Source of the DNA: Saccostrea cucullata
Lineage: Eukaryota
Assembly: GCF_032062105.1 (NCBI RefSeq)
Contig: NW_026929847.1
Coordinates: forward strand, 1 to 64,000
Reading direction: 5' to 3'
DNA: 64,000 bases
The notes beneath the pieces are model-generated. The model ran no database searches. It saw only the letters and a program-made list of their open reading frames with translations, and had not been told where the DNA came from. Each line of letters begins with the position of its first letter. Within the stretch, counting starts at the first letter, position 1. The translations under genes and the position numbers were made by a program. This document shows, piece by piece, positions 41,416 through 63,960 of the stretch.

Positions 41416-43124
41416 CTTATAAAGCTAAAATATTGCACAAAAGAAGATTGACGTTATATATAGTGCATTATAGTAACTGTTAATACATTAATTCATATCC
41501 CTCATATATACGATATATATAAGCTGCAGAATAGCATTGTGATTTTATAAACATGTATATTAGTCTTTGACCATAATGCTACAGATCCCGTAATACAAAA
41601 CGTGTGCAATTTAAGGTACAAGATGTTTTGTGCTCTATTGGGGAGAATTTCTACAATTTCCAGCATTGGTCAATCAACCATTTTTCACTTTTTAAAGCTG
41701 GATAGGAATCGTAAAAGGAATGTGTGCATCATTTTTGTACGAATTTTCGCTAAATCTTAAAACCCGTATTTAAAGGGTTTGACTTATATAAACGGAGTAT
41801 GCTATACAGTACTCGGTAGCGACAAAAATAACTGATATCCGCATAATTCTCTTAAATCATTATCAAAATACCTTAAGTTTTATAGGACAATGTTCTATAA
41901 GGAAATTTGTTTATCAATTTTATGATTTTAAGTGTATGATTCTATCATAGGTAATTCTAAATTAATAAATCGAACTTTCATTGATACTATTTCGTTAAAA
42001 TGTTCAAATTGACTTCTTACAAATAAATATTTTTTTAGGTACTTTGCACATTTCAATACTTGTCTTGATTTTGTGAAATTGCAGCTTTGAAAAATGACAA
42101 AACAGCCTAACGAAATCATGTGAACGGATGTGATATTAAAGTATAGTTTATCTTTCAACATACTAGTAGTAAATTGTAAAAAATTTTTTACATTTGTGGT
42201 TTGAAACTTTGAAATTTTGTGTTGGAAGTTAACTTTCATGATGCTAGTTTCCACTCTGAAAATGCCATCTTCATAACATGGAAGGCAGTCGAACATATGA
42301 GAAATACTTCTATCATCTTGCGCCTTGTTGTCATCTTAATGTACAGACAGTACAGAAATTACTCTAACTGCACTGTTTCTGTATGAAGGCAAGGTAAAAG
42401 TAAGCTTTAAAATGAATGAATACAAAAACGGTTGCATTTAAAGAGAAACTATCAAAATAAACATTTGGAAACTCTCACAGTATATATGTGTGAAGTATGT
42501 TAAAAGTAAAGGAATATGATAAAAATTAAGTTATAAATCAAATTAGAGATATATTTTGTTGTCACTTTCCACAATTTTGCATTACAACAATGTGATTTTA
42601 ATTTGTGCGAAAATTCATGTGAATTTAAAAAAGCGTTGAGCTGTATAGTTCCCTGCTGATACTTCGTCTAATACAGGAAAGTAAGATATCAAAGAAAACC
42701 TATAATTCAAGTTGGACTGGTCATTGCAGTATTCAAACAAAAACAGATAGACGTAACTGTAATTAAATGTAAACAGAGGTAATGACAAAATTTTATTTAA
42801 TTCCAGTACCACTCACGGTACCGAAGTAACCAGATTTCGTTTCATGGCACCGATGCAGTTAGACAATTCCACGATACTAGTGTGAAGAAAATGATTGTAT
42901 GACAAAACCTTATACCTCTTGAATAAAGAATATGGAGATAACAAACAGTATTCAATATCAAAGTCTATAAAACAATACAAATTATGAGCAGAGCAAACAT
43001 GGACCTCCAAAACATCAGAGTTTAGATCAGGTGCCATTGAGGGGTGAGCATCTCCTGACTGGTCACACCCGCTGTGGCTCTTTGTCATCATCGGGAAATA
43101 ACGGGAGAATCCGTCGTCAATCCA

Positions 43125-46100
43125 CACTACTGAATTAAATATCCCCTTAGATTCCAAAAAATCCCCTGTTGTCCCCCTGTCAGTCCCTGACATTTTCCTG
43201 TCTCTCCCTGACTTTCTTCTATGATCCCCTGTCGTTGTCCCTGCTCTCCCTGTCCAGTCCCTGTCGTCCCCTGTCGTTGTCCCTGCCTTTCCTGTCTACT
43301 CCCTGTCGTCCCCTGACATTCTCTGATCTCCCTGTCCAGTCCCTGTCGTCCCCTGTCGTTGGCCCTGCCTTACCTGTCTACTCCCTGTCGTCCCCTGACA
43401 TTTATTTTGGCCAAGAAAAGGAGTTTAAAAAACATTTCTGTTGCATTTAAGAGTGAAGAATGATATAGTCTTGAAAACTTTAAGTATATTTTTTTCTATA
43501 ATATAGACTTAGTAAAAAGTTAACACATTTTTAAATGACTGAACTTAATCCCCTGTAATTTAGTTTCTAAACTTGTATAAATGTGATTTTTTTTGGTTCG
43601 GTAGCATTTCGGGTGAAGGACGGCAGAGAATTGCATCGATTCTAAAGAAGAAATAAATTAACAATTTATTTCATCTTGTGATGGTAGACGGCATATACAT
43701 TGTACTTTATGAACCTTTTATCTATATTCAAAAACTTTTTCATTTTTTATTTGATCTATTTTGAAACATCTTTGAGCGTAATAACTGTCTTTGTAAAAGA
43801 ACTAGATTTAAACAATTCGGAATACATTATCAAATCCATGCATGGGATATTTTGTTTTCCCAAAGAATTAAATGAATAAAAAATGAATTGAAAGGAATGA
43901 TATATAAATGCATTAATAAAATAAATTTTTATTTAATAAATAAAAATTATTAAATAAAGTAAAAACTAGTATATTCATTCATTTTCTTATGTGAATAAAT
44001 CTACAAATCGACTGAATTAAGAATGAATGAATTAATGAATAAATAAATGAATAAATGAATGAATGAATGAATGAATGAATAAATAAATAAATAAATAAAT
44101 AAATGAAAAAATAAATAAATAATGAGAATTATATAAAGTTATTCATTTATTTGTTTATTTTTTAATTTATCACTCATTTATATCCCCAAAATGTGTTTTA
44201 TATGTTTTGATTTAATTATTTGCTGAAATATGCTACAAAGTATTTAATTGGCATATTTAAACGACTTTTTATTACTTTAAGTCCATGATGGGTATCAAAA
44301 TGATCTTCTCATTATGCACAATATTAATCTGTCACTTTTGATACTTTGTTTTGATTAAAAAATCGGTTTTCAAAACCCTAACACGGTTCTAAAACAACAT
44401 CAAAGCCATTGATGTTTACCAGTAATTAACTCGGGGTACACAGTCACGACACCTATTATCTTTTTCACTGACCGCTCTACCCTGTTTATGTTGTGGCAGG
44501 ACGACCGTGTGTAGTTTGCAGCTGTTTGAAATAACATTTTCTCTTTGTAAGAGAACTTAATTTTTTTTTCAATCAAAACAAAATAAAAGTATCAAAGAAG
44601 CTATTGACGGGTAAAGATTGTGCATAATGAGACGATTATTTTGATATCCATCATGGAAGTAAAATAATTAAAAGCAGATTTAATATGCTTCAAAAATACT
44701 TTGACACATATTTTTTCGTAAATAGTTTTACATAAAATACCAAAAAAATCCCATTTTCGGGTATTTGATTATTTAATTTGTTTGTATCGTCAATTTTAAA
44801 GATAAAAAAAGATTGTTTTTATAATAAAAAAAATACATGCAGTTAATAAGTTTATTTTTTCTTTTTTTGTTTACTAACTATTTAAAATCAATTATTGTAT
44901 TGATTTTAAAAAACTGAATTATTCCAAAATGCACCAATACCCCCTGCTCTCTCTCCCTTTTTTTCTTCTCTTTTTTTTTATCCAAATGGTACAGCGTCAA
45001 ACCAGTATTTAACGAATCTGTTTACAGATTGCAGCGAAATAAATTCATAGTAAATAAATAAAATACAATAAATGAATAACAAAAAAATTATTAATAAAAT
45101 ATCAATCTTTTATTTTTGAAATTGAAAAAAACAACAGATTAATGAATCATTTATATCTGCAAGAAATTGTGTTTCTTTAGTTTTATTTTATATACGCACT
45201 TGCATCCGTAGATGTGCTACAAGGTATTTTATTAGCGTATTAAAACGCTTTTTTTTTATTATTTTAAGTATATGATGGATATCAAAATAATCGTCTCATT
45301 ATGCACAATATTAATCTGTCAATTTGATTTTTGATACATTGATTTGATTGAAAAAAAAATCGGTTTTCAAAACCGTAACACGATTCTGAAAGAACATCAA
45401 AGCCATTGACGTTTACCAGTAATTAACTCGGGGTACACAGTACACAGTTATGACACCTATTGTCTTTCTCGCTGACCGCTATACCTTGTTTATGTTGTGT
45501 TCAGAGTGACCGTGTACAGTTTGCAACTGTTTGAAATAACATTTTCTCTTTTTATAAGAACTGATTTTTTTTCTATCAAAACAAAATAAAAGTATCAAAG
45601 AAACTATTAACGGGTAAATATTGTGCATAATGAGACAATTATTTTGATATCCATCATGGAAGTAAAATAAATAAAAGCAGTTTAAATATGCTTAAAAAAT
45701 ACTTTGATACATATTTATCGTAAATCAGTTTACATAGAATATGCCAAACAAATCCCATTTTCGGGTATATGATTATTTAGTTTGCTTGTATCGTCAATTT
45801 TGAAAATAAAAACATTGTTTTTATAATGATTAAATACATGCAGTTAATTAGTTTGTTTATTTTTTTTTAATTTACTTACTATTTAAAATCAATTATTGTA
45901 TTGATTTTAAAAACTAAAATATTCCAAAATGCGCCAGTACCCCTGCTGTCTTTACTTCTTTTTTTTTTTTACAAAAGGTAGAGAGTCACTCCATTATTAA
46001 ATGAATAAAACATGAATAAAACAAAACTAAGGAAACACAATTTCTTGTAGATATAAATGATTGACTAATTTGTTGCATTTTCAATTTCAAAAATAAATAA

Positions 46101-47194
46101 ATTGATATTTTATTTATATTTATTTCATTATTTTTTTAAATATTTTTTTCTTATTTATTTACTATGTATTTATTTCGCTGTAATCTGTTTTATTCATTAA
46201 ATACTGGTTTGACTTTTACCATTTGTAAGAAAAAAGTCAGCAGGGGGTATTGGCGCATTTTAGAATATTTTAGTGTTTAAAACCAATACATAATTGATTT
46301 AAATAGTAAGTAAATTAAAAAAAACTTATTAACTGCATGTATTAAATCATCATTAAAACAATGTTTTTATTTTTTAAATTGACGGGCAAGAGAACTAAAT
46401 AATCATATACCCGAACATTTGATTTGTTTGGCATATTCTATGTAAACTGATTTACGATAAATATGTGTCAAAGTATTTTTGAAGCATATTAAATCTGCTT
46501 TTAATTATTTTACTCCCATGATGGATATCAAAATAATCGTCTCATTATGCACAATCTTTACCCGTCAATAGGTTCTTTGATACTTTTATTTTGTTTTGAT
46601 GAAAAAAAAATTAAGTTCTCTTACAAAGAGAAAATGTTATTTCAGATAGTTGCAAACTGTACACGGTCACTCTGAACACAACATAAACAAGGTATAGCGG
46701 TCAGCGAGAAAGACAATAGGTGTCATAACTGTGTACTGTGTACCCCGAGTTAATTACTGGTAAACATCAATGGCTTTGATGTTCTTTCAGAATCGTGTTA
46801 CGGTTTTGAAAACCGATTTTTTTTTTCAATCAAATCAATGTATCAAAAATCAAATTGACAGATTAATATTGTGCATAATGAGACGATTATTTTGATATCC
46901 ATCATGTACTTAAAATAATAAAAAAGCGTTTTAATACGCTAATAAAATACTTTGTAGCACATCTACGGATGCAAGTGTTTATATGAAATAAAACTAAAGA
47001 AATACAATTTCTTGCAGATATAAATGATTCATTAATCTGTTGTATTTTTAATTTCAAACATAAATAGATTGATATTTTATTAATAATGTTTTTTATTATT
47101 ATTCATTTATTTTATTTTATTTATTTACTATGAATTTATTTTGCTGCAATCTGTTTTATTCGTTAAATACTGGTTTGACTTTGTACCATTTGTC

Positions 47195-47225
<31 letters not shown>

Positions 47226-49126
47226 AAGAAAAAAGAAAAAAAAGTAAGAGACAGCAGGGGGTATTGGTGCATTTTGGAATAATTCAATTTTTAAAATCGA
47301 TAGAATGAATGATTTTAAATAGTTAGTAAACTAAAAAAAATAAATAAATAAATAAACCTTATTAACTGCATGTATTTATTTATTATAAAAACAATCTTTT
47401 TTTATTTTTAAAATTGACGGTACAAACAAACTTAATAATCAAATACCCGAAAATGGGATTTTTGGGGCTTATTTTATGTTAAACTATTTACGAAAAAATA
47501 TGTGTCAAAGTATTTTTGAAGCATATTAAATCTGCTTTTAATTATTTTACTTCCATGATGGATATCAAAATAATCGTCTCATTATGCACAATCCTTACCC
47601 GTCAATAGCTTCTTTGATACTTTTATTTTGTTTTGATTGAAAAAAAAAAATTAAGTTCTCATACAAAGGGAAAATGTTTTTTCAAACAGCTGCAAACTAC
47701 ACACGGTCGTCCTGCCACAACATAAACAAGGTAGAGCGGTCAATGAAAAAGATAATAGGTGTCGTGACTGTGTACCTCGAGTTAATTACTGGTAAACATC
47801 AATGGCTTTGATGTTGTTTTAGAACCGTGTTAGGGTTTTGAAAACCGATTTTTTAATCAAAACAAAGTATCAAAAGTCTAATTGACAGATTAGTATTGTG
47901 CATAACGAGACGATCATTTTGATACCCATCATGGACTTAAAGTAATAAAAAGTCGTTTAATTATGCCAATAAAATACTTTGTAGCATATTTCAGCAAATT
48001 ATTAAATTAAAACTAATAAAACACATTTTGGGGATATAAATGAGTGATAAATTAAAAAATAAACAAATAAATGAANNNNNNNNNNNNNNNNNNNNNNNNN
48101 NNNNNNNNNNNNNNNNNNNNNNNNNNNNNNNNNNNNNNNNNNNNNNNNNNNNNNNNNNNNNNNNNNNNNNNNNNNNNNNNNNNNNNNNNNNNNNNNNNNN
48201 NNNNNNNNNNNNNNNNNNNNNNNNNNNNNNNNNNNNNNNNNNTTGTAGATTTATTCTCATAAGAAAATGAATGAATATACTAGTTTTTACTTTATTTAAT
48301 AATTTTTATTAATTAAATAAAAATTTATTTTATTAATGCATTTATATATCATTCCTTTCAATGAATTTTTTATTCATTTAATTCTTTGGGAAAACAAAAT
48401 ATCCCATGCATGGATGTGATAATGTATTCCGAATTGTTTAAATCTAGTTCCTTTACAAAGACAGTTATTACGCTCAAAGATGTTTCAAAGTAGATCAAAT
48501 AAAAAATGAAAGAGTTTATAAGTATACATATAAAAGGTTCATAAAGTACAATGCATATGCCGTCTACCATCACAAGATGAAATAAATTGTTGATTTATTT
48601 CTTCTTTAGAATCGATGCAATTCTCTGCCGTCCTTCACCCGAAATGCTACCGAACCAAAAAAAATCACATTGATACAAGTAAGAGAAACTAAATTACAGG
48701 GGATTAAGTTAAGGCATTTAAAAATGTGTTCATTTTTTACTAAGTCTATATTTTAGAAAAAATATACTTAAATTTTTGAAGACTATATCATTCTTCACTC
48801 TTAAATGCAACAGAAATGTTTTTTAAACTCTTTTTCTTGGCCAAAATAAATGTCAGGGGACGACAGGAAGTAGACAGGGAAGGCAGGGCCAACGACAGGG
48901 GACGACAGGGACTGGACAGGGAGATCAGAGAATGTCAGGGGACGACAGGGAGTAGACAGAGAAGGCAGGGACAACGACGGGGGACGACAGGGACTGGACA
49001 GGGAGAGCAGGGACAACGACAGGGGATCATAGGAGAAAGTCAGGGAGAGACAGGAAAATGTCAGGGACTGACAGGGGGACAACAGGGAATTTTTTGGAAT
49101 CTAAGGGGATATCTAATTCAGTAGTG
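43125..49126. mobile_element. ~6-kb non-coding foldback element with CACTA termini and 3-bp TSD (CCA), inserted in a Penelope-like fragment
   Basis: cca|CACTACTGAATT ... AATTCAGTAGTG|cca. Arms are reverse-complementary up to a short spacer near 46010-46190. Subterminal tccctg/gtc repeats at 43165-43400 and 48850-49085. Confidence 0.9.
48076..48242. other. Assembly gap
   Basis: N run. It mirrors the (GAAT)/(AAAT) microsatellite at ~44020-44125 in the other arm. Confidence 0.99.
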
Positions 49127-50990
49127 CCAGTGTCTGAGTAAAGAACTAACAATTTGTATGAAAAAACGTCAGTCAGTATTTGACTCAATGATAAATTGTT
49201 TTTGCTGACGAGGTCATTGTATCAACCATAAAACTTACAAATTATGACTTTAAACGAGACTGCTTTTTTTCATCAACTTGTTTAATCAATAATTTATCTT
49301 GTTTTAGAAATTGTTCATACGTAGAGCAGGTTCTTGCGTATCGAATCAACTGAGATAAATAAACTCTGTATGCAGCTTATGAAGGTATATTGCTGCATAG
49401 GTAAGGAAATTGACGATAGAAAAGTTAAGGATTTTAGATTACCATTAACGTCACACACAATACTTTGCGATTTATACCAAGTTATGCCAATACAAAACGG
49501 TTTACAAAAAATATAAATTAGAACCTGGAAATTAACACTAAAATGGACGTAAAATGAAGGAAACAAAAAGGGCAACTTAAAAGAGACCATGCATTTCCAA
49601 AAAGTTTGAATGAGACAAAATTTAATCCACCTCTCATCCTAATAAAGTCATCTCTGAAGGCGATAAACTGGGTAGATGTGAACTACCGTTATCTTTTGGA
49701 TTGCAGATAATTCAAATCAAGCTAGTTCATTGCCTTATGAGACGACTTCAAAGGGTTGAGAGGTGATTAAAATATATAGATTGGTTTAATAATATGTTTA
49801 AAATGAATGAATGAAAAATTGATTCAATGTTTTTCTTTTGTTTCACGTTCTTTTTCTGAATTACCCCATAGGAATTCGTGGTCTGCGCAAAACCCCAATG
49901 GTATGTTTTCAGTACGGTCCGATGAATCGTTACCTATGAGATGAGTTGCTCTAAAATGCGATGGTCTGACATATCAAAGTCCGATGGTGTGAAGAAACGT
50001 TTATGACGTCTCAACAATCCGACATCAATCCTTGACATTGTTCTTCTAAATTCAAAAGTCATCATTTCTGAAATCGTCCTCGCACTCAGTTTTATTGATT
50101 TTGCTTATTGCTGGCACCTTCCAGATATATTAGGTTTAATTCTCGTACACCACTCGACCCATAGGCGTCGTAAGCAAACTGAAAGTGGGAGAGGGGTAAT
50201 TGAAAGTTGTTAAAAAGGTAGACCCTAATTTTCAATGCCTATGTTATGTATACATATATTTGTAAAAAAGTTTTTTCAACCCCCAATCCCCCCGGTTCCG
50301 ACCCCTGAGCGACCGATTAGTGTTAGTTCTTCCTTCACACCAACCAGAGGGTTAGTCCCTGCACACTATTCGAGTAAGTAGCGTTAGTCTCGCATCCATC
50401 CAAGATATCTAGTTTATAGTTGTTACACACTTTTCGAAAGATAAGTGTTATTTTCGAAACCATCCGAGAGATTAGGGTTAGTTTTAACATTAAGATTTTT
50501 TTTACGAATTTGGCAGGTCGAGGCATTGTAGTGTGGCGCAGTAGCACTATGACGTCATAAATGTTAATTGTTTGCACCCTCAGGCTCATAACATTGGGGT
50601 TTGGCAAGACCATTGTACTTTGGCATGACCATCAGACTTTGGAGACCCATCGCACTTTGGAGTCCTACATATATATAACGCTACTGTGATGCAACTAATT
50701 TTGTATTCTCTTTACCATATTTACCAAGTGAAATATTCTTGTAAAAATGAAAATGATCCTATCCTGAAGAGAAACTTTAGATACATACTGATAGGTTTCT
50801 GTTTCATATTAACTTTTATACACACTATCCTTGAGTAATGAAGTTAAATATTTAAAATGACAAATTTTAATTGCAAGCATGCACAAAAATATCAATTTGA
50901 TTACTTAAATATATCATTAATGTTTGTAGTTCCAACGGCAGATGAGGTGATTTCCAGCGACGCAATATTTGTAGTCTGTTTCAAATGGGA

Positions 50991-52706
50991 TCACTTCTGA
51001 TACTTTATTTTCTTCACCTGTCTATTTCTATTTTGAGCAATAAACAAATTGTCATTTGAATCTATACACAGTCCAAAGGGTTCACTCAGTCCACAGTCTA
51101 TGTAACGGAGGAACTGTCCATCCTGGTCTATGATGTGGATACAGTCATTGTGATAATCAGCGGTAAGGATGTGACTCTGACTGTCTGTGGTGATTCCATG
51201 TGGACAGAATGGTTTGTTCCTTGGAGCAGGAGTATGTCCAGTGTAACTGAATCGCAGTTTCCCAGCCTGATTGACCACCACTACTCCTTTAACTCCCTGA
51301 TCAGACACGCAGATATTTAGGTTCCTGTTCTCAGTTATGTGTCTAGTAAAACAGCCAGTTGAATAGAGAGGATTCCCTTTATCATCAAATTGAATGGTTT
51401 GCTTCTCTGTGGAGCCAGAGTAACAGACAACTTTTGTTTGTTTGTCATCATCAGTGCTCATGATAAGCAGGAGGTCACCAGAAGAGGTACTACAGACAGT
51501 GCGAGGTCTCCAGTTCTGTAGTCTGATCACCTCCTCTATCTTCTCATTCTTCACAATGTTCACAGTTCCATCTTTGTTATCAGTATAAACTAGATTTCCA
51601 CTTTTTGTCACTGCTATGTCCCCTGCCAAAATCCCTGACTTGGTTCTGATTGACTTTAGTAGTGATCCCTGATTGATACTGTAGAGTTTCATGGTGTTCT
51701 CATTTCCATGTGTCCAGATTTCTTCGTCACTCAGACAGGCCACATTGCATAGGTAATCTTTAAATCGAGTATATATTGTGGTGACAATCTCTGGTTGATC
51801 AAGCAGCTGTTTGACAGGAGGAGAGGATCCAGCTTCTGTTAACTTCTCTTGTAAAGGAGATAAGGTAGCTCCGAACAATCCCTGTGCTGTTTTTATATTG
51901 TCACCTTGGGTATTAGGTGATATTGTTGTTGCGACTATTTTTCCAAAAATATGCTCCTGTACGGAGAATGGTAAAAATTGTGGCATGGTAGTGTTTAATT
52001 TAGGGGGAAGTATCCTGTATTTGTTAAAGTCTAATTGGAAGTTTAACAATTTGAAAATATCTGTAGAATCTATCAACTTTTGCATAGAAATAATATCTTC
52101 ATTTAATTTAGAGGTGCACGTATGTACATTTGACAAATGTGATTTAAGAATTTCATTATGTTTGTGTTTCATCTCTTCAACTTCAGCTCTCAGTTTCTTG
52201 ACAAGTTTGTCAATTTCTCTGTGCCAGTCCTCTCCATGTTTTGTTATGGCTATTAAGAGTTCCTCATGTTGCACATTTAGTTGGCTCATTGTGTTTTGTA
52301 CATCAGAGGCAATGTCCAGGTACGCTTGATGGATGGATCCCTCCAATTCATTAATTTCTGTTTGGATTTCTGCTTTCTTTTTGGCAAGAATGCGATTTAT
52401 TAAGTGGACATTATGTTCTTTGTGTTTTCTGGAGGCAATACAAGCGGAGCAAACCGGAATATCGCATTCCTTGCAGTGCAACTCACAGCTGTAATCTGAG
52501 TGAAGTTCACATCGAGGGTAGAGGAGAGTAGATTCCCTGTCCTGAAATTTGACGACTTTGTGATCTTTATATTCACCTGTTGAGATGTGTTCTCCCACAC
52601 AGACCTTACACAGGTTGACAAGGCATATATCGCAGTGCATCTGTACCTTAGCGGTCTCACACATGTCACATCGCATCACATCCTTGCCAATGGTAAGGGG
52701 GTCCAT
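50991..52706 (-). CDS. Intact RING-less TRIM-like protein, 571 aa (B-box1, B-box2, coiled coil, NHL-type beta-propeller; TRIM2/3/71-like)
   Basis: CDMC..HCDIC..LCKVCVGEH and CELH..HCKECDIPVCSAC..HKEH, followed by a helical region and [16 protein letters not shown] / PFGLCIDSNDNLFIA repeats. Start context accATGG. Confidence 0.92.
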   Translation of the reverse strand: MDPLTIGKDVMRCDMCETAKVQMHCDICLVNLCKVCVGEHISTGEYKDHKVVKFQDRESTLLYPRCELHSDYSCELHCKECDIPVCSACIASRKHKEHNVHLINRILAKKKAEIQTEINELEGSIHQAYLDIASDVQNTMSQLNVQHEELLIAITKHGEDWHREIDKLVKKLRAEVEEMKHKHNEILKSHLSNVHTCTSKLNEDIISMQKLIDSTDIFKLLNFQLDFNKYRILPPKLNTTMPQFLPFSVQEHIFGKIVATTISPNTQGDNIKTAQGLFGATLSPLQEKLTEAGSSPPVKQLLDQPEIVTTIYTRFKDYLCNVACLSDEEIWTHGNENTMKLYSINQGSLLKSIRTKSGILAGDIAVTKSGNLVYTDNKDGTVNIVKNEKIEEVIRLQNWRPRTVCSTSSGDLLLIMSTDDDKQTKVVCYSGSTEKQTIQFDDKGNPLYSTGCFTRHITENRNLNICVSDQGVKGVVVVNQAGKLRFSYTGHTPAPRNKPFCPHGITTDSQSHILTADYHNDCIHIIDQDGQFLRYIDCGLSEPFGLCIDSNDNLFIAQNRNRQVKKIKYQK

Positions 52707-53227
52707 GGTTTGGAATTTTTACACTAAAGTGAATACAGTACACCAGGTTACAGTTGATATCTAGTTTTTAAAAAAAGTTGTACTTTTGCATTACAGACTT
52801 CACTGTTGCATTGCTGATAGGAAATCAGACCAAAGACACTTATATCAGTGATTGTGACTTTAAAAAATATTAGTTTATGTTTAATTTGAGATCTATAAAT
52901 AAGAAATCTTTGTAAATGTGCTCTAAAAATATTTAATTAAAAAGTTGAAGAACTCATTGGGTATGAATGATACATTGTACGTTTCCCAACACCTTTGTGC
53001 CTGATAAGTTTGTAATTTAACAATAAAATCTTATTTAGTATCTTAATAGTGAAACGAGTGGAGGGGGTGTCATATTAATTCAGTAAGATGTAACGGGTGA
53101 CATTTTTTGGGGAGGCATATCGACTGTTTAACAAAAAAATTATAGTTACTGTTTGTGTAAATTTTTGGAAAAAATAGATATGACGAAAAAATGTATAAAA
53201 TATCAATTTTGTGAAATAGTACAGTCA

Positions 53228-58819: not shown

Positions 58820-60264
58820 NNNNNNNNNNNNNNNNNNNNNNNNNNNNNNNNNNNNNNNNNNNNNNNNNNNNNNNNNNNNNNNNNNNNNNNNNNNNNNNNN
58901 NNNNNNNNNNNNNNNNNNNNNNNNNNNNNNNNNNNNNNNNNNNNNNNNNNNNNNNNNNNNNNNNNNTAAACACGGAAGTAATGTTGTTGACTGCAATTTG
59001 TGAACAAGAAATAAAATTGAATTCCAAAGTGTATCAAAAATTTGAAATTTGATGCTTACATTTTTAATAGGTATATGATATTATTTATTATTTAGTATGT
59101 AAATTTATTCATAATTTTGTTAAAGTATTTAACTTGTTGATATATATACACGGGGCATTGGACATGCACATTTGAGCACTGTGGAACACAGGAACAGCGA
59201 TTAATTAAAACGATGTCCATGCATGACAAAATTAATGCTGCTGCATATTTGTTTTCTAAGCAATTCACAAATGCTTAAATTTGAATTAATGATAAGAAGT
59301 CTTAATATTAAAATATATATTCCATATACATGTACATTTCTTTCAGAGAGAGAGAAAAAGAAAGAAAAAAAGGAGCGAGTGAGACATCTTTGCACATATA
59401 GTAATTAGTATTAAGTATTAAGTTCTTATAAGCGCTACTTTTATATCATAATTTAAAATGTATAGCCATTTTAATTTTAATCCATAGTAAATCTTACTGA
59501 TGTACCCCGATAGCCAGCCTTCGGTGAACTGTCGATTTTGAAGCGTGTAAAAAAGGGAGGGAGGTAAGTAGACAAGCCAAAAACATCTCCGAATTAAAAG
59601 ACCGGTTAAAGTTCAAGGTAAAAATTAAGTCCCTCTTTGATTAAATAAAAATACTGGGAAACCGTCTACATCAACAGTGTTTTTTTAATATAAATTAACA
59701 GTAAGAGAACATGCTAAGGGAAAAAAGGGGAAAAAAATACGGAGGATGGGGATGCCACGAAAATTTTGCTAAAAAAAAAAATTGTTTCAAAAACACATTT
59801 AAAATGATCAAATAAATACATTATACAGGAATTGTATGATAAAAATTACTATTGTTTTCTAAAAAATTTCCAATGAAATGGTTGAATGAAATCCTACTCG
59901 AACCTGTATTGCAATATGTTAAGAAATTAAATACAGCTAGTGTAGACTTTTCCCAAAAGCATTATACCGTATGTTGGTGGAATTAACAATATTGCATCGA
60001 CAGTGATATTATGAATGAGGATAATTATAAATCAAAAGAAAAAACTATATAGATTACAGTAAGCGAAAAGAAAACGAATTTCTGGCTAATGTCAGATATA
60101 TGGATATGTATTAAGAATACATAACTATAGATAGAGCAAAAAGTATAAGTGACAAGTGGTTATGGGTGTAATTTCCATCACTTCCATTATTAAGTTATGA
60201 AAATGTGCGTGAAATATATTTCACTGACTATTGAATTCGTGATTTGAAATAAATATAGTCACGT

Positions 60265-61783
60265 TCTGTCCTATATCAATTCTTCCAACATTGTCCAAAT
60301 TATTTGAAAAACACATAGCCAATCAACTACGGGATTTTACTACTACCTTTGATCTTATTTATAAATCACAATCTGGTTTTCGAGAGTTTCATTCCTGTCA
60401 AACAGCATTAACAAAACTAACAGACAATTGGTTACAAGCGATGGATCAAGGAAATCTTGTAGGGTTAACTTTTCTAGACTTTAGTAAAGCATTCGATTTA
60501 GTCAATCACGATATTCTGATAAATAAACTTAAGTTGTATCACTTTGACCAAATGTCAATTAAATGGTTTTATTCCTATTTAAGCTCCAGAACACAATGTG
60601 TAAAATTAGGTACTTATTCCTCTAAATTCATGCCCGTCACAGCAGGTGTGCCACAAGGTTCTATTTTAGGACCACTTTTATTTTTACTGTACATAAATGA
60701 TCTTCCTCTACATGTAAATAATACAGATATTGATTTGTTTGCTGATGATGCAACTTTACATACATATCATAATAATGTGCATTCTATTGAAAATGCCCTA
60801 AATGTTGATTTGTGTGAGATTGAAGACTGGTGTTCTGGAAATCAAATGGTGTTGAATATTGAGAAGACAAAATGTATGCTTATGGGAACTCAGCATAGAA
60901 AATCTAAGTTAACATCTTCAAAATTAGATTTGTGTGTATCAGACAAAGTTCTCAAAAATGTTGAGTACATATTGACCATTCATTGCGCTATATTAGTCAT
61001 ATTGATTCTGTTTGCAAGTCCTTGACGTATAAACTATTTACATTACGTAAAATTAAAAATTTTCTCCCATTACACACGCGGAAACTTTTTTATAATGCAT
61101 ACATTCTGCCATCTTTAAATTATTGCTTAACTATATGGGGCAATGCTCCAGGTGCTGGCATAGAAAGAGTTTTTAAATTACAAAAAAGAGCAGCAAGAAT
61201 TATATTAGATGCGGCACCAGATGCTCCATCACAACCATTATTTGTGAAACTTGGTTGGCTGACCATATATGAATTAATAGATTTTCATAAATACATACTG
61301 CTTTATAAAACACTTCATGATATGACACCTGATTATCTGAGAGACTCGTTCGAATTTATTTCCTCCAATAATTATATTTTACGTTCTGAATCCAATTATG
61401 ACCTTAGTCTACCAAAGTATCGAACAAATCTGTTTAAAAATTCTTTTCAATATTCAGGCGTTCATTTATGGAACAAATTACCTCTTCATGTACGTTTTCC
61501 CCCAACTGTACAATCTTTTCGTAAAAATGTAGAAAAATTTATCATCAATGGACGCAACATTTCCTAATGAGTAACTTGTTTCTATGTTTCGATAATACAT
61601 TGTATATTTTTTTTTCCAAATGTAATTCACGTATGTAATACACTTGTAAATTTTCTGATTATTGTACTGTTGTATACGTAATTGTACATCTATGTATAGA
61701 GGGCCCCGAGGAAGACTAGTGCATTGCACTAATCGGGTTACCCTCTTTAAATAAAGTATTATTATTATTATTTTTATTATTAT
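60265..61783 (+). mobile_element. 5'-truncated CR1/L2-group LINE (reverse transcriptase domain and 3' end)
   Basis: Motifs QSGFR, FLDFSKAFDLV, GVPQGSILGPLLFLLYINDL and LFADD. Deletion/frameshift near 60970; C-terminal ORF 60983..61567. 3' stem-loop tagtgcattgcacta, AATAAA and (TAT)n tail. Confidence 0.9.
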
Positions 61784-63134: not shown

Positions 63135-63960
63135 CAGAACACAACAATTGCATCGTGTCATCCTTCCATTACATTATGTCAACACATTATGACGTTTACT
63201 CACACAGCTATTGCATTGTGTCAACCTTAATGTCAACTCTTTATGATATTTACTCAACGTACTATTGTACTGTGTCAACCTTTCATTACATTATGTCAAC
63301 TCTTTATTATATAAACCCACAATACTATTGCATTATGTCAACATTCCATTACATTATGTCAACTCTTTATGACATTAACCCACAATACTATTGCATTATG
63401 TCAACCTTCCATTTTATTATGTCAACTCTTTATGACATTAGTCCACACTACTATTGCATTGTGTCAATCTTTCATTACATTATGTCAACTCTTTATGACA
63501 TTAACCCACAATACTATTGCATTATGTCAACCTTCCATTATATTATGTCAACTCTTTATGACATTAGTCCACACTACTACTGCATTGTGTCAATCTTTCA
63601 TTACATTATGTCAACTCTTTATGACACTTACACACACTACTTTTGCATTATGTCAACTTTCCATTACATTATGTTTAGTCTTTATGGCATTAACTCGCAC
63701 TTTAATTACATTGCGCCAATTTTCCATGGCATTATATCAGCTCTTTATGACATTAAGTCAAAACAATTTTACGTGGTGTAAAGATGTTTTTATATTTTTT
63801 CAACTCATTATTACATTATGTGCACTCTCTACTATTTAGTCTAAGTAGTTCATTACATGATGTGAATTTATCTTTAATTCAATATCAAGTCGATATAACA
63901 CGATGTCAGAATTTCATTACATGATCGGAACAAATTGTCACATGTGGCCAATTCTTTAGT
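63135..63960. repeat. 63-bp minisatellite built from three 21-bp subunits
   Basis: aactctttat recurs at 63361, 63424 and 63487 (period 63). The array degenerates towards both edges. Confidence 0.85.

Follow-up and report, generated by a model that had tools for sequence, protein, structure and literature searches.

The window analysed here comprises 64,000 nucleotides of the oyster Saccostrea cucullata (assembly GCF_032062105.1, contig NW_026929847.1, positions 1 to 64,000) and contains a 6,002-bp element, at 43125-49126, that starts with CACTA at 43125 and finishes with TAGTG at 49126 (Table 1). The element is built of two mirror-image arms, a left arm of 2,888 bp (43125-46012) and a right arm of 2,941 bp (46186-49126, including 167 N), and its sequence supports classification as a putative non-autonomous EnSpm/CACTA-type insertion with foldback architecture.

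Table 1. Features of the palindromic element and its insertion site (positions in the window)
Feature	Position	Strand	Remarks
Interrupted host repeat, left part	42935..43121	+	Dispersed repeat, 76-82% to paralogs
Target-site duplication, left copy (CCA)	43122..43124	+	Gap-free empty-site alignment to 2 unsplit paralogs
Left terminus, CACTACTGAATTA...	43125..43163	+	1 mismatch to right terminus over first 26 bp
GC-rich (58%) subterminal repeats, 19 copies of CCTG(A/T/C)C	43164..43402	+	Best period 10.4 bp, one orientation
AT-rich (24% GC) outer arm	43403..44012	+	Without convincing similarity to modules
TGAA/TAAA microsatellite, expanded form of AT-rich start of module 1	44013..44125	+	44078-45017 against 45038-46006, 80%
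Module L1, old palindrome 44045-44906 (62% overall) and linker	44045..45137	+	Near-invariant core 44284-44325 and 44614-44655
Module L2, inner end truncated	45138..46012	+	Palindrome of L2 at 45037-45877 (64%)
Central junction, 11-bp tandem duplication (ATGAATAAAAC twice)	46001..46022	+	At natural 10-11-bp inverted repeat
173-bp loop, tail of module 2 and start of third module	46013..46185	-	Present once; 87-89% to L1 and R1 tails
Module R2, mirror of L2 (92-94%)	46186..47036	-	Holds near-identical patch and tract of module-1 type
Module R1, mirror of L1 (94-95%)	47037..48075	-	Alignment to L1
167-N run at mirror position of microsatellite (135 bp on left)	48076..48242	.	Most likely scaffold gap
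Right outer arm, subterminal repeats, terminus ...TAATTCAGTAGTG	48243..49126	-	96% to 43125-44006
Target-site duplication, right copy (CCA)	49127..49129	+	Flank comparison
Interrupted host repeat, right part	49130..49318	+	Dispersed repeat, 76-82% to paralogs

The boundaries of the insertion were examined through its host, a dispersed repeat with at least three paralogs in the window at 76-82% identity. When the element and one CCA were deleted in silico, the flanks aligned without a gap across the site to 34700-35150 and, in reverse orientation, to 8100-8560, two of three paralogs compared; the remaining one includes the downstream part only. Both unsplit paralogs read TCA where the element locus has CCA, and the target-site duplication (TSD) is therefore 3 bp long, on the evidence of one insertion. 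This empty-site alignment confirms the CACTA..TAGTG ends and CCA duplication that had been proposed in an earlier reading of the sequence (the original prediction). That reading also had the insertion splitting a Penelope-like fragment; an older repeat is indeed split, but the Penelope label is putative. Linkage to a Penelope RT/GIY-YIG frame, or a hammerhead motif, would bear it out; Rfam returned 0 matches for the paralog region 34400-35400 at E 5. Beyond the right end the host repeat resumes, with no mirrored version of the left flank; copying must therefore have stopped, or been cut, exactly at the element end. An unmirrored flank needs either insertion as a palindrome or a repair that kept the end. 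No further copies of the terminus were found in the window.

Each end of the element carries 239 bp of GC-rich repeats, and the left array has higher-order units of 21, 42 and 82 bp; the phasing of its units at 10.4 bp, close to the ~10 bp first noted, has a coherence of 0.91 (no null computed). EnSpm elements are classified by CAC..GTG ends and a 3-bp TSD (PMC12730594). The element has the 5'-CAC(TA)..(TA)GTG-3' termini of the EnSpm/CACTA group (PMC12730594, PMC8195511), CCA on both sides, and subterminal repeats within the range of 10-20-bp units given for the group, with 19 copies on the left. We assign it to the EnSpm/CACTA type because of its ends, the 3-bp TSD seen against unsplit paralogs and its phased subterminal repeats. 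In plants, CACTA subterminal repeats are typically both direct and inverted (PMC8195511), and short terminal inverted repeats (TIRs) are likewise typical though not defining; as the oyster element has repeats of one orientation at each end and a TIR that spans the arm, it is filed as a variant. The subterminal array is likely a putative binding array for a transposase or TnpA-like protein. The element contains 40 stop-to-stop frames of at least 45 aa, the longest of 114 aa; in the 16 of these that were scanned, no Pfam match reached the cut-off (sub-threshold matches only) and no TnpD-type DDE transposase was found, in line with the absence of coding capacity noted at first. Rfam gave 0 matches in 42500-50000 at E 0.1 and 0 in the window at gathering score.

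The arms differ by 127 substitutions (57 transitions and 70 transversions) and 30 indel events, corresponding to ~4.6% divergence and ~95% identity. By region, the outer arm has 33/881 substitutions and 3 indel events, module 1 has 47/990 and 14, and module 2 has 47/838 and 13; a gradient of divergence from the outer arm to module 2 was not significant (Fisher 0.085). A read folded back on itself is expected to mirror the left flank and to yield near-identical, indel-rich arms. Here the left flank is unmirrored and the arms are substitution-rich, and we rule this artefact out, extending an argument first made from the scattered substitutions.

The ends and the insertion could nevertheless be real while the interior is a chimeric assembly of several family copies or of two haplotypes, in which case the full palindrome would not exist as a single molecule. 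That the assembly was scaffolded is indicated by two N runs, of 167 and 147 bases, the first of which cuts off the right outer arm, and near-identical and converted patches can be produced by mixing of reads. However, the interval 43125-48075, which takes in the centre and both right modules, is gap-free; the N run is near the size expected from symmetry (167 versus 135); the flanks and TSD join correctly; the 127 substitutions, against 30 indels, follow a coherent module tree; and the centre is laid out like a biological junction. We therefore regard a chimeric interior as improbable. A microsatellite had been described in each arm: the left one is present (44013-44125), but the N run replaces its mirror image, so the right one is presumed, and the terminal 884 bp on that side are linked across the gap. 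Identity between the arms is also patchy. L2 and R2 differ at 2/277 sites in one patch and at 50/439 next to the centre (0/5000 permutations), and in 45545-45695, a window chosen post hoc, R2 is of module-1 type at 10/10 sites compared with 13/85 outside it (Fisher 1e-7). Such patches would fit gene conversion between arms and modules.

The two ~1-kb modules described for each arm, each with its own inverted repeat, are present, the left inner one in truncated form. Each is a palindrome of ~850 bp with arms 62-65% identical; in L2, the core region and the outer parts both beat 300/300 local shuffles, and its inner spacer was not significantly palindromic (p 0.11, local shuffles). A 39-bp module core is near-invariant, with an opposite-arm identity of 0.94 in the best 20-column bin versus 0.42-0.67 further out, and a 15-bp core motif occurs in all eight module arms, where 0.29 matches are expected in the whole window. 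Four other matches to this 15-mer in the window have two mismatches each and are located in paralogs of a neighbouring TRIM gene. As single-stranded DNA, module 1 has a predicted fold of -133.7 kcal/mol (z -10.1, 0/20 shuffles). Modules 1 and 2 are 85% identical, and of 75 two-against-two sites, 72 pair L1 with R1 and L2 with R2, which places the tandem duplication before the inversion of the arm. The build order shown by these comparisons thus runs from the module palindrome (62-65%), through tandem duplication (85%), to whole-arm inversion (95%). A small palindrome with 12-bp perfect arms and a 6-base loop lies in each module linker region, at 44881-44910 and 45881-45910. A degenerate terminus within the module linker was considered and rejected (p 0.6, 0.07, 0.33), and the presence of a decayed module in the outer arm is unconvincing (p 0.03, 0.71, 0.15 and 0.06 in four tests, the best alignment being of low complexity).

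The symmetry of the modules and that of the whole element might have two origins, instead of reflecting repeated fold-back within a single lineage, if the ~850-bp module was a separate element resembling a miniature inverted-repeat transposable element (MITE) that a CACTA end acquired before amplification. Its long arms and near-invariant core would resemble a TIR with a protein-binding site, and Galileo TIRs grew by secondary transposon insertions that were incorporated in both TIRs (PMC4168063). On the other hand, the modules have no sharp ends and no TSD, their similarity fading outward into the microsatellite, and no free module was found elsewhere in the window. We consider such a capture rather unlikely, although it is possible under either of the histories of the palindrome weighed below and compatible with the one that we favour.

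The centre of the element bears on how the palindrome arose. L2 stops at TGAATAAAACA (46002-46012), and the inverted part opens with the same motif at 46013; the module boundary natively carries a near-identical word on the opposite strand, where the inverted part begins, and TGAATAAAAC is found on both sides of the central junction. The ~2.9-kb arms first described are confirmed (95% identity), but the ~0.2-kb spacer proved to be 173 bp of module sequence rather than unique DNA, and the parent element would accordingly have had at least three modules. The layout of the centre is that of a template switch between short, naturally occurring inverted repeats; in yeast fold-back inversions, natural inverted repeats of 3-15 bp are found at the centre (PMC10622511). 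The 11-bp tandem duplication at the junction calls for an extra step, either slippage or templated insertion.

Taken with measured confidence, the most likely account is that the element is a non-autonomous EnSpm/CACTA-type transposon whose palindromic form predates its insertion here by a transposase acting in trans. In this scheme, a parent carrying one end and at least three ~1-kb modules would have undergone a template switch at the natural 10-11-bp inverted repeat, whose copies lie 173 bp apart, and the switch would have produced mirrored versions of module 2, module 1 and the end, leaving two copies of the same end. Transposase made elsewhere would then have cut and pasted the palindromic element into the host repeat, with the helically phased subterminal repeats at both ends binding the transposase or a TnpA-like protein, and arms and modules would later have exchanged sequence in patches. 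That forms of this kind can spread is indicated by Galileo, in which one extended-TIR form is common to 22 copies of a subfamily (PMC3573991).

Alternatively, an ordinary CACTA-type element whose left and right interiors differed may have inserted first and become palindromic in place, through break repair templated by one end or arm of the same copy, its sister chromatid or another copy. The same route, to a TIR1-F1-F1-TIR2 structure, is described in Galileo, where 38/170 copies have extended TIRs (PMC3573991). One arm of the oyster element is 173 bp longer and joined at microhomology, as an over-long repair tract would be; the uneven arm identity fits a mosaic of templates; and no other palindromic copy was seen. 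This history would nevertheless need a single 2.9-kb tract that deleted the whole original interior while keeping the end and TSD exact, and the longest Galileo TIR in PMC3573991 is 1.26 kb. A form that has spread would also be likelier to be sampled than a one-off. We judge repair in place, the main alternative, to be unlikely, without regarding it as negligible.

Several observations weigh against arrival of the element as a ready-made palindrome of CACTA type. Although movement as a unit is likely, extension of a TIR in place gives the same picture; the shared motif is present twice at the junction instead of once; the right outer arm is linked to the rest through the N gap; the patchy identity could instead be assembly mosaicism; and the subterminal repeats have one orientation per end, whereas those of plant CACTA elements have both. 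The window holds one foldback copy of this build, and neither a second full-length copy, a second TSD nor an autonomous partner was seen in the window or in non-eukaryotic collections; exact-pattern scans with the terminus or module core gave 0 matches in metagenome, viral and genome contigs, which are non-eukaryotic and hence uninformative. Lastly, when 502 words sampled from 42700-48075 were compared with 24 listed sequencing runs (shares of 0.12 or less were not used), none of the runs held half of the words.

Ten of these 24 runs do hold part of the stretch, and the five best hold 0.23-0.26 of the 502 words. None of the listed holders is an RNA run, which says nothing for or against expression. 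Flank makes up only 8% of the stretch, so that most shared words lie inside the element. Four of the five runs come from one sample of one organism, possibly the source of the assembly, and the fifth from a second organism in another study; at least one holder is thus not the source, and related sequence exists outside the assembly. The observed shares would fit relatives that are ~5% diverged, or the presence of part of the element.

Among described transposons, the oyster element is closest at its ends to lettuce LsC1 and Ipomoea Tpn1 (PMC8195511) and zebrafish EnSpm-N49/N49B (PMC13189230), non-autonomous EnSpm/CACTA elements of several kilobases with CACTA..TAGTG or CAC..GTG ends, ~10-bp subterminal repeats and no transposase; the 3-bp TSD is shared with LsC1, while EnSpm-N49 has a 2-bp TSD and 15-bp TIRs (PMC13189230). 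The TIRs of these elements measure 15-28 bp and their interiors are not mirrored, whereas the oyster TIR is the whole 2.9-kb arm. CMC elements are reported from all mollusc genomes analysed in PMC10294476, with two curated autonomous consensus sequences; a search of 12 of the 33 supplementary files of that paper for two motifs and 'CMC' gave 0 matches. Assignment to a classified family under the Repbase rule depends on the same TSD length and a match over the first 11 bases (PMC4455052).

In its build, the element has the features by which foldback elements are recognized, namely long modular TIRs with internal tandem repeats, a short middle and no coding sequence (PMC4079207). It shares them with Tetris of Drosophila virilis and with FB, TU, TFB1 and FARE cited there, the TIR of Tetris being divided into an outer domain, internal tandem repeats and an inner domain (PMC4079207). 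Tetris, however, has TSDs of 8-10 bp, on which it was assigned to Mutator, TIRs of up to 1,735 bp and ~220-bp repeats (PMC4079207), where the oyster element has a 3-bp TSD, CACTA ends, 2.9-kb arms, ~1-kb self-palindromic repeats and a middle made of arm sequence. Two-TIR and extended-TIR copies of Galileo, of the P superfamily (PMC3573991, PMC4168063), resemble it in the growth of TIRs through tandem repeats and mirror copying of the interior, in the ~95% identity of the longest TIR pair and in the conversion proposed there, but differ in their 7-8-bp TSD, P-type transposase and TIRs of at most 1.26 kb. The Helentron-associated HINE/Pearl elements of oysters (PMC7492417) are likewise bivalve, non-autonomous and furnished with a microsatellite beside internal tandem repeats; they differ in having no TSD, 11-12-bp subterminal inverted repeats, a 3' hairpin and no whole-length palindrome. 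Three other assignments were rejected: a Mutator-type foldback (Tetris, FB, FARE) needs an 8-10-bp TSD, Chapaev3 needs a TWA TSD between A and T (PMC4079192) where the element has CCA, and a Helentron or HINE lacks a TSD and carries short subterminal inverted repeats with a 3' hairpin (PMC7492417) where the element has a TSD and long TIRs.

The description of the element as a foldback CACTA derivative, made at the outset, is thus upheld by the ends, the 3-bp TSD, the phased subterminal repeats, the substitution-rich arms and the unmirrored flank. No CACTA/EnSpm foldback was found in the literature covered, with Repbase, Dfam and subscription journals outside its scope. Repbase is said to list oyster and fish non-autonomous families with long TIRs. 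The passages covered of PMC3485254, PMC9659126, PMC6431247 and PMC4168063 describe no CACTA foldback. Foldback structure may evolve independently in different lineages, mostly within Mutator (PMC4079207), and long TIRs are a convergent trait of several superfamilies (PMC3573991); the oyster element would add EnSpm/CACTA to those that have converged on foldback architecture, and would show that one type of end with its subterminal array suffices on both sides of an animal CMC element. With three dated layers and a readable junction, it would make a clear test case for the origin of long TIRs, whether by template switch at a short inverted repeat or by TIR-templated repair. Such elements are difficult to assemble and annotate.

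More broadly, and only tentatively, the element may belong to a mobile family of all-TIR CACTA elements in Saccostrea, several kilobases long and formed by repeated mirror copying, with tandem palindromic ~1-kb modules, a conserved 39-bp core and two ends of the same type. If so, the family would be a CACTA counterpart of the foldback elements, its arms exceeding those reported for Tetris (1.7 kb) and Galileo (1.26 kb), and, being mobile, it would supply bivalve genomes with hairpins, inversions and satellite monomers. Both inversions and new satellites are known to arise from foldback elements (PMC4079207), effects that could matter in fast-turnover immune-gene clusters such as the TRIM array described below. 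A loop of 173 bp flanked by 11% divergence makes extrusion of a cruciform unlikely. The ability to form cruciforms put forward in the original prediction is doubtful for these reasons, and hairpins in single-stranded DNA are plausible in view of the predicted fold. Long double-stranded RNA (dsRNA) would need transcription of the element; roles for dsRNA, cruciforms or effects on the TRIM gene are unsupported.

That gene is a B-box/NHL TRIM71-like frame of 575 aa (50991-52718, minus strand); no other frame of its kind listed for the window is both uninterrupted and full-length. The element lies downstream of it at 1,865 bp from the end of the frame, matching the ~1.9 kb first estimated, and the sole AATAAA between the TRIM stop and the element is 965 bp before the element. 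The best 120 relatives listed for the protein are all from oysters, one S. cucullata protein being 98% identical over 57% of the query. Four broken paralogs of the frame, at 4335-6270, 12840-14880, 21735-23665 and 32300-34737, have 72-83% DNA identity to it, and the TRIM71-like paralogs of the window form a birth-and-death cluster.

Other repeats occur in the window. A second element, at 16249-19005, is bounded by ~80-bp inverted repeats (90%) and contains 21-bp AAACTATAGTT-type repeats, with internal inverted repeats at 18095-19003; no clear TSD was found at its ends. Within it, a GTCC microsatellite (16911-16979) precedes an array in which a 166-bp unit is repeated 4.3 times (17150-17867), a combination that looks like a nested oyster HINE/Pearl element, and fragments related to the 166-bp repeat adjoin the second N run of the window (58820-58966, 147 bases). 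A 36-bp minisatellite of ~152 copies, with a second block of 10, occupies 24845-31075 (~80% matches), and one of its frames encodes acidic DSDDDLPAGVGE repeats interrupted by stops and frameshifts. Frameshifted reverse-transcriptase frames (RVT_1, E 1e-28) at 60243-61567 belong to an element of the long interspersed (LINE) type, and a 63-bp tandem array of 8.4 copies (63139-63866, 83% matches) has an open cysteine/histidine-rich frame.

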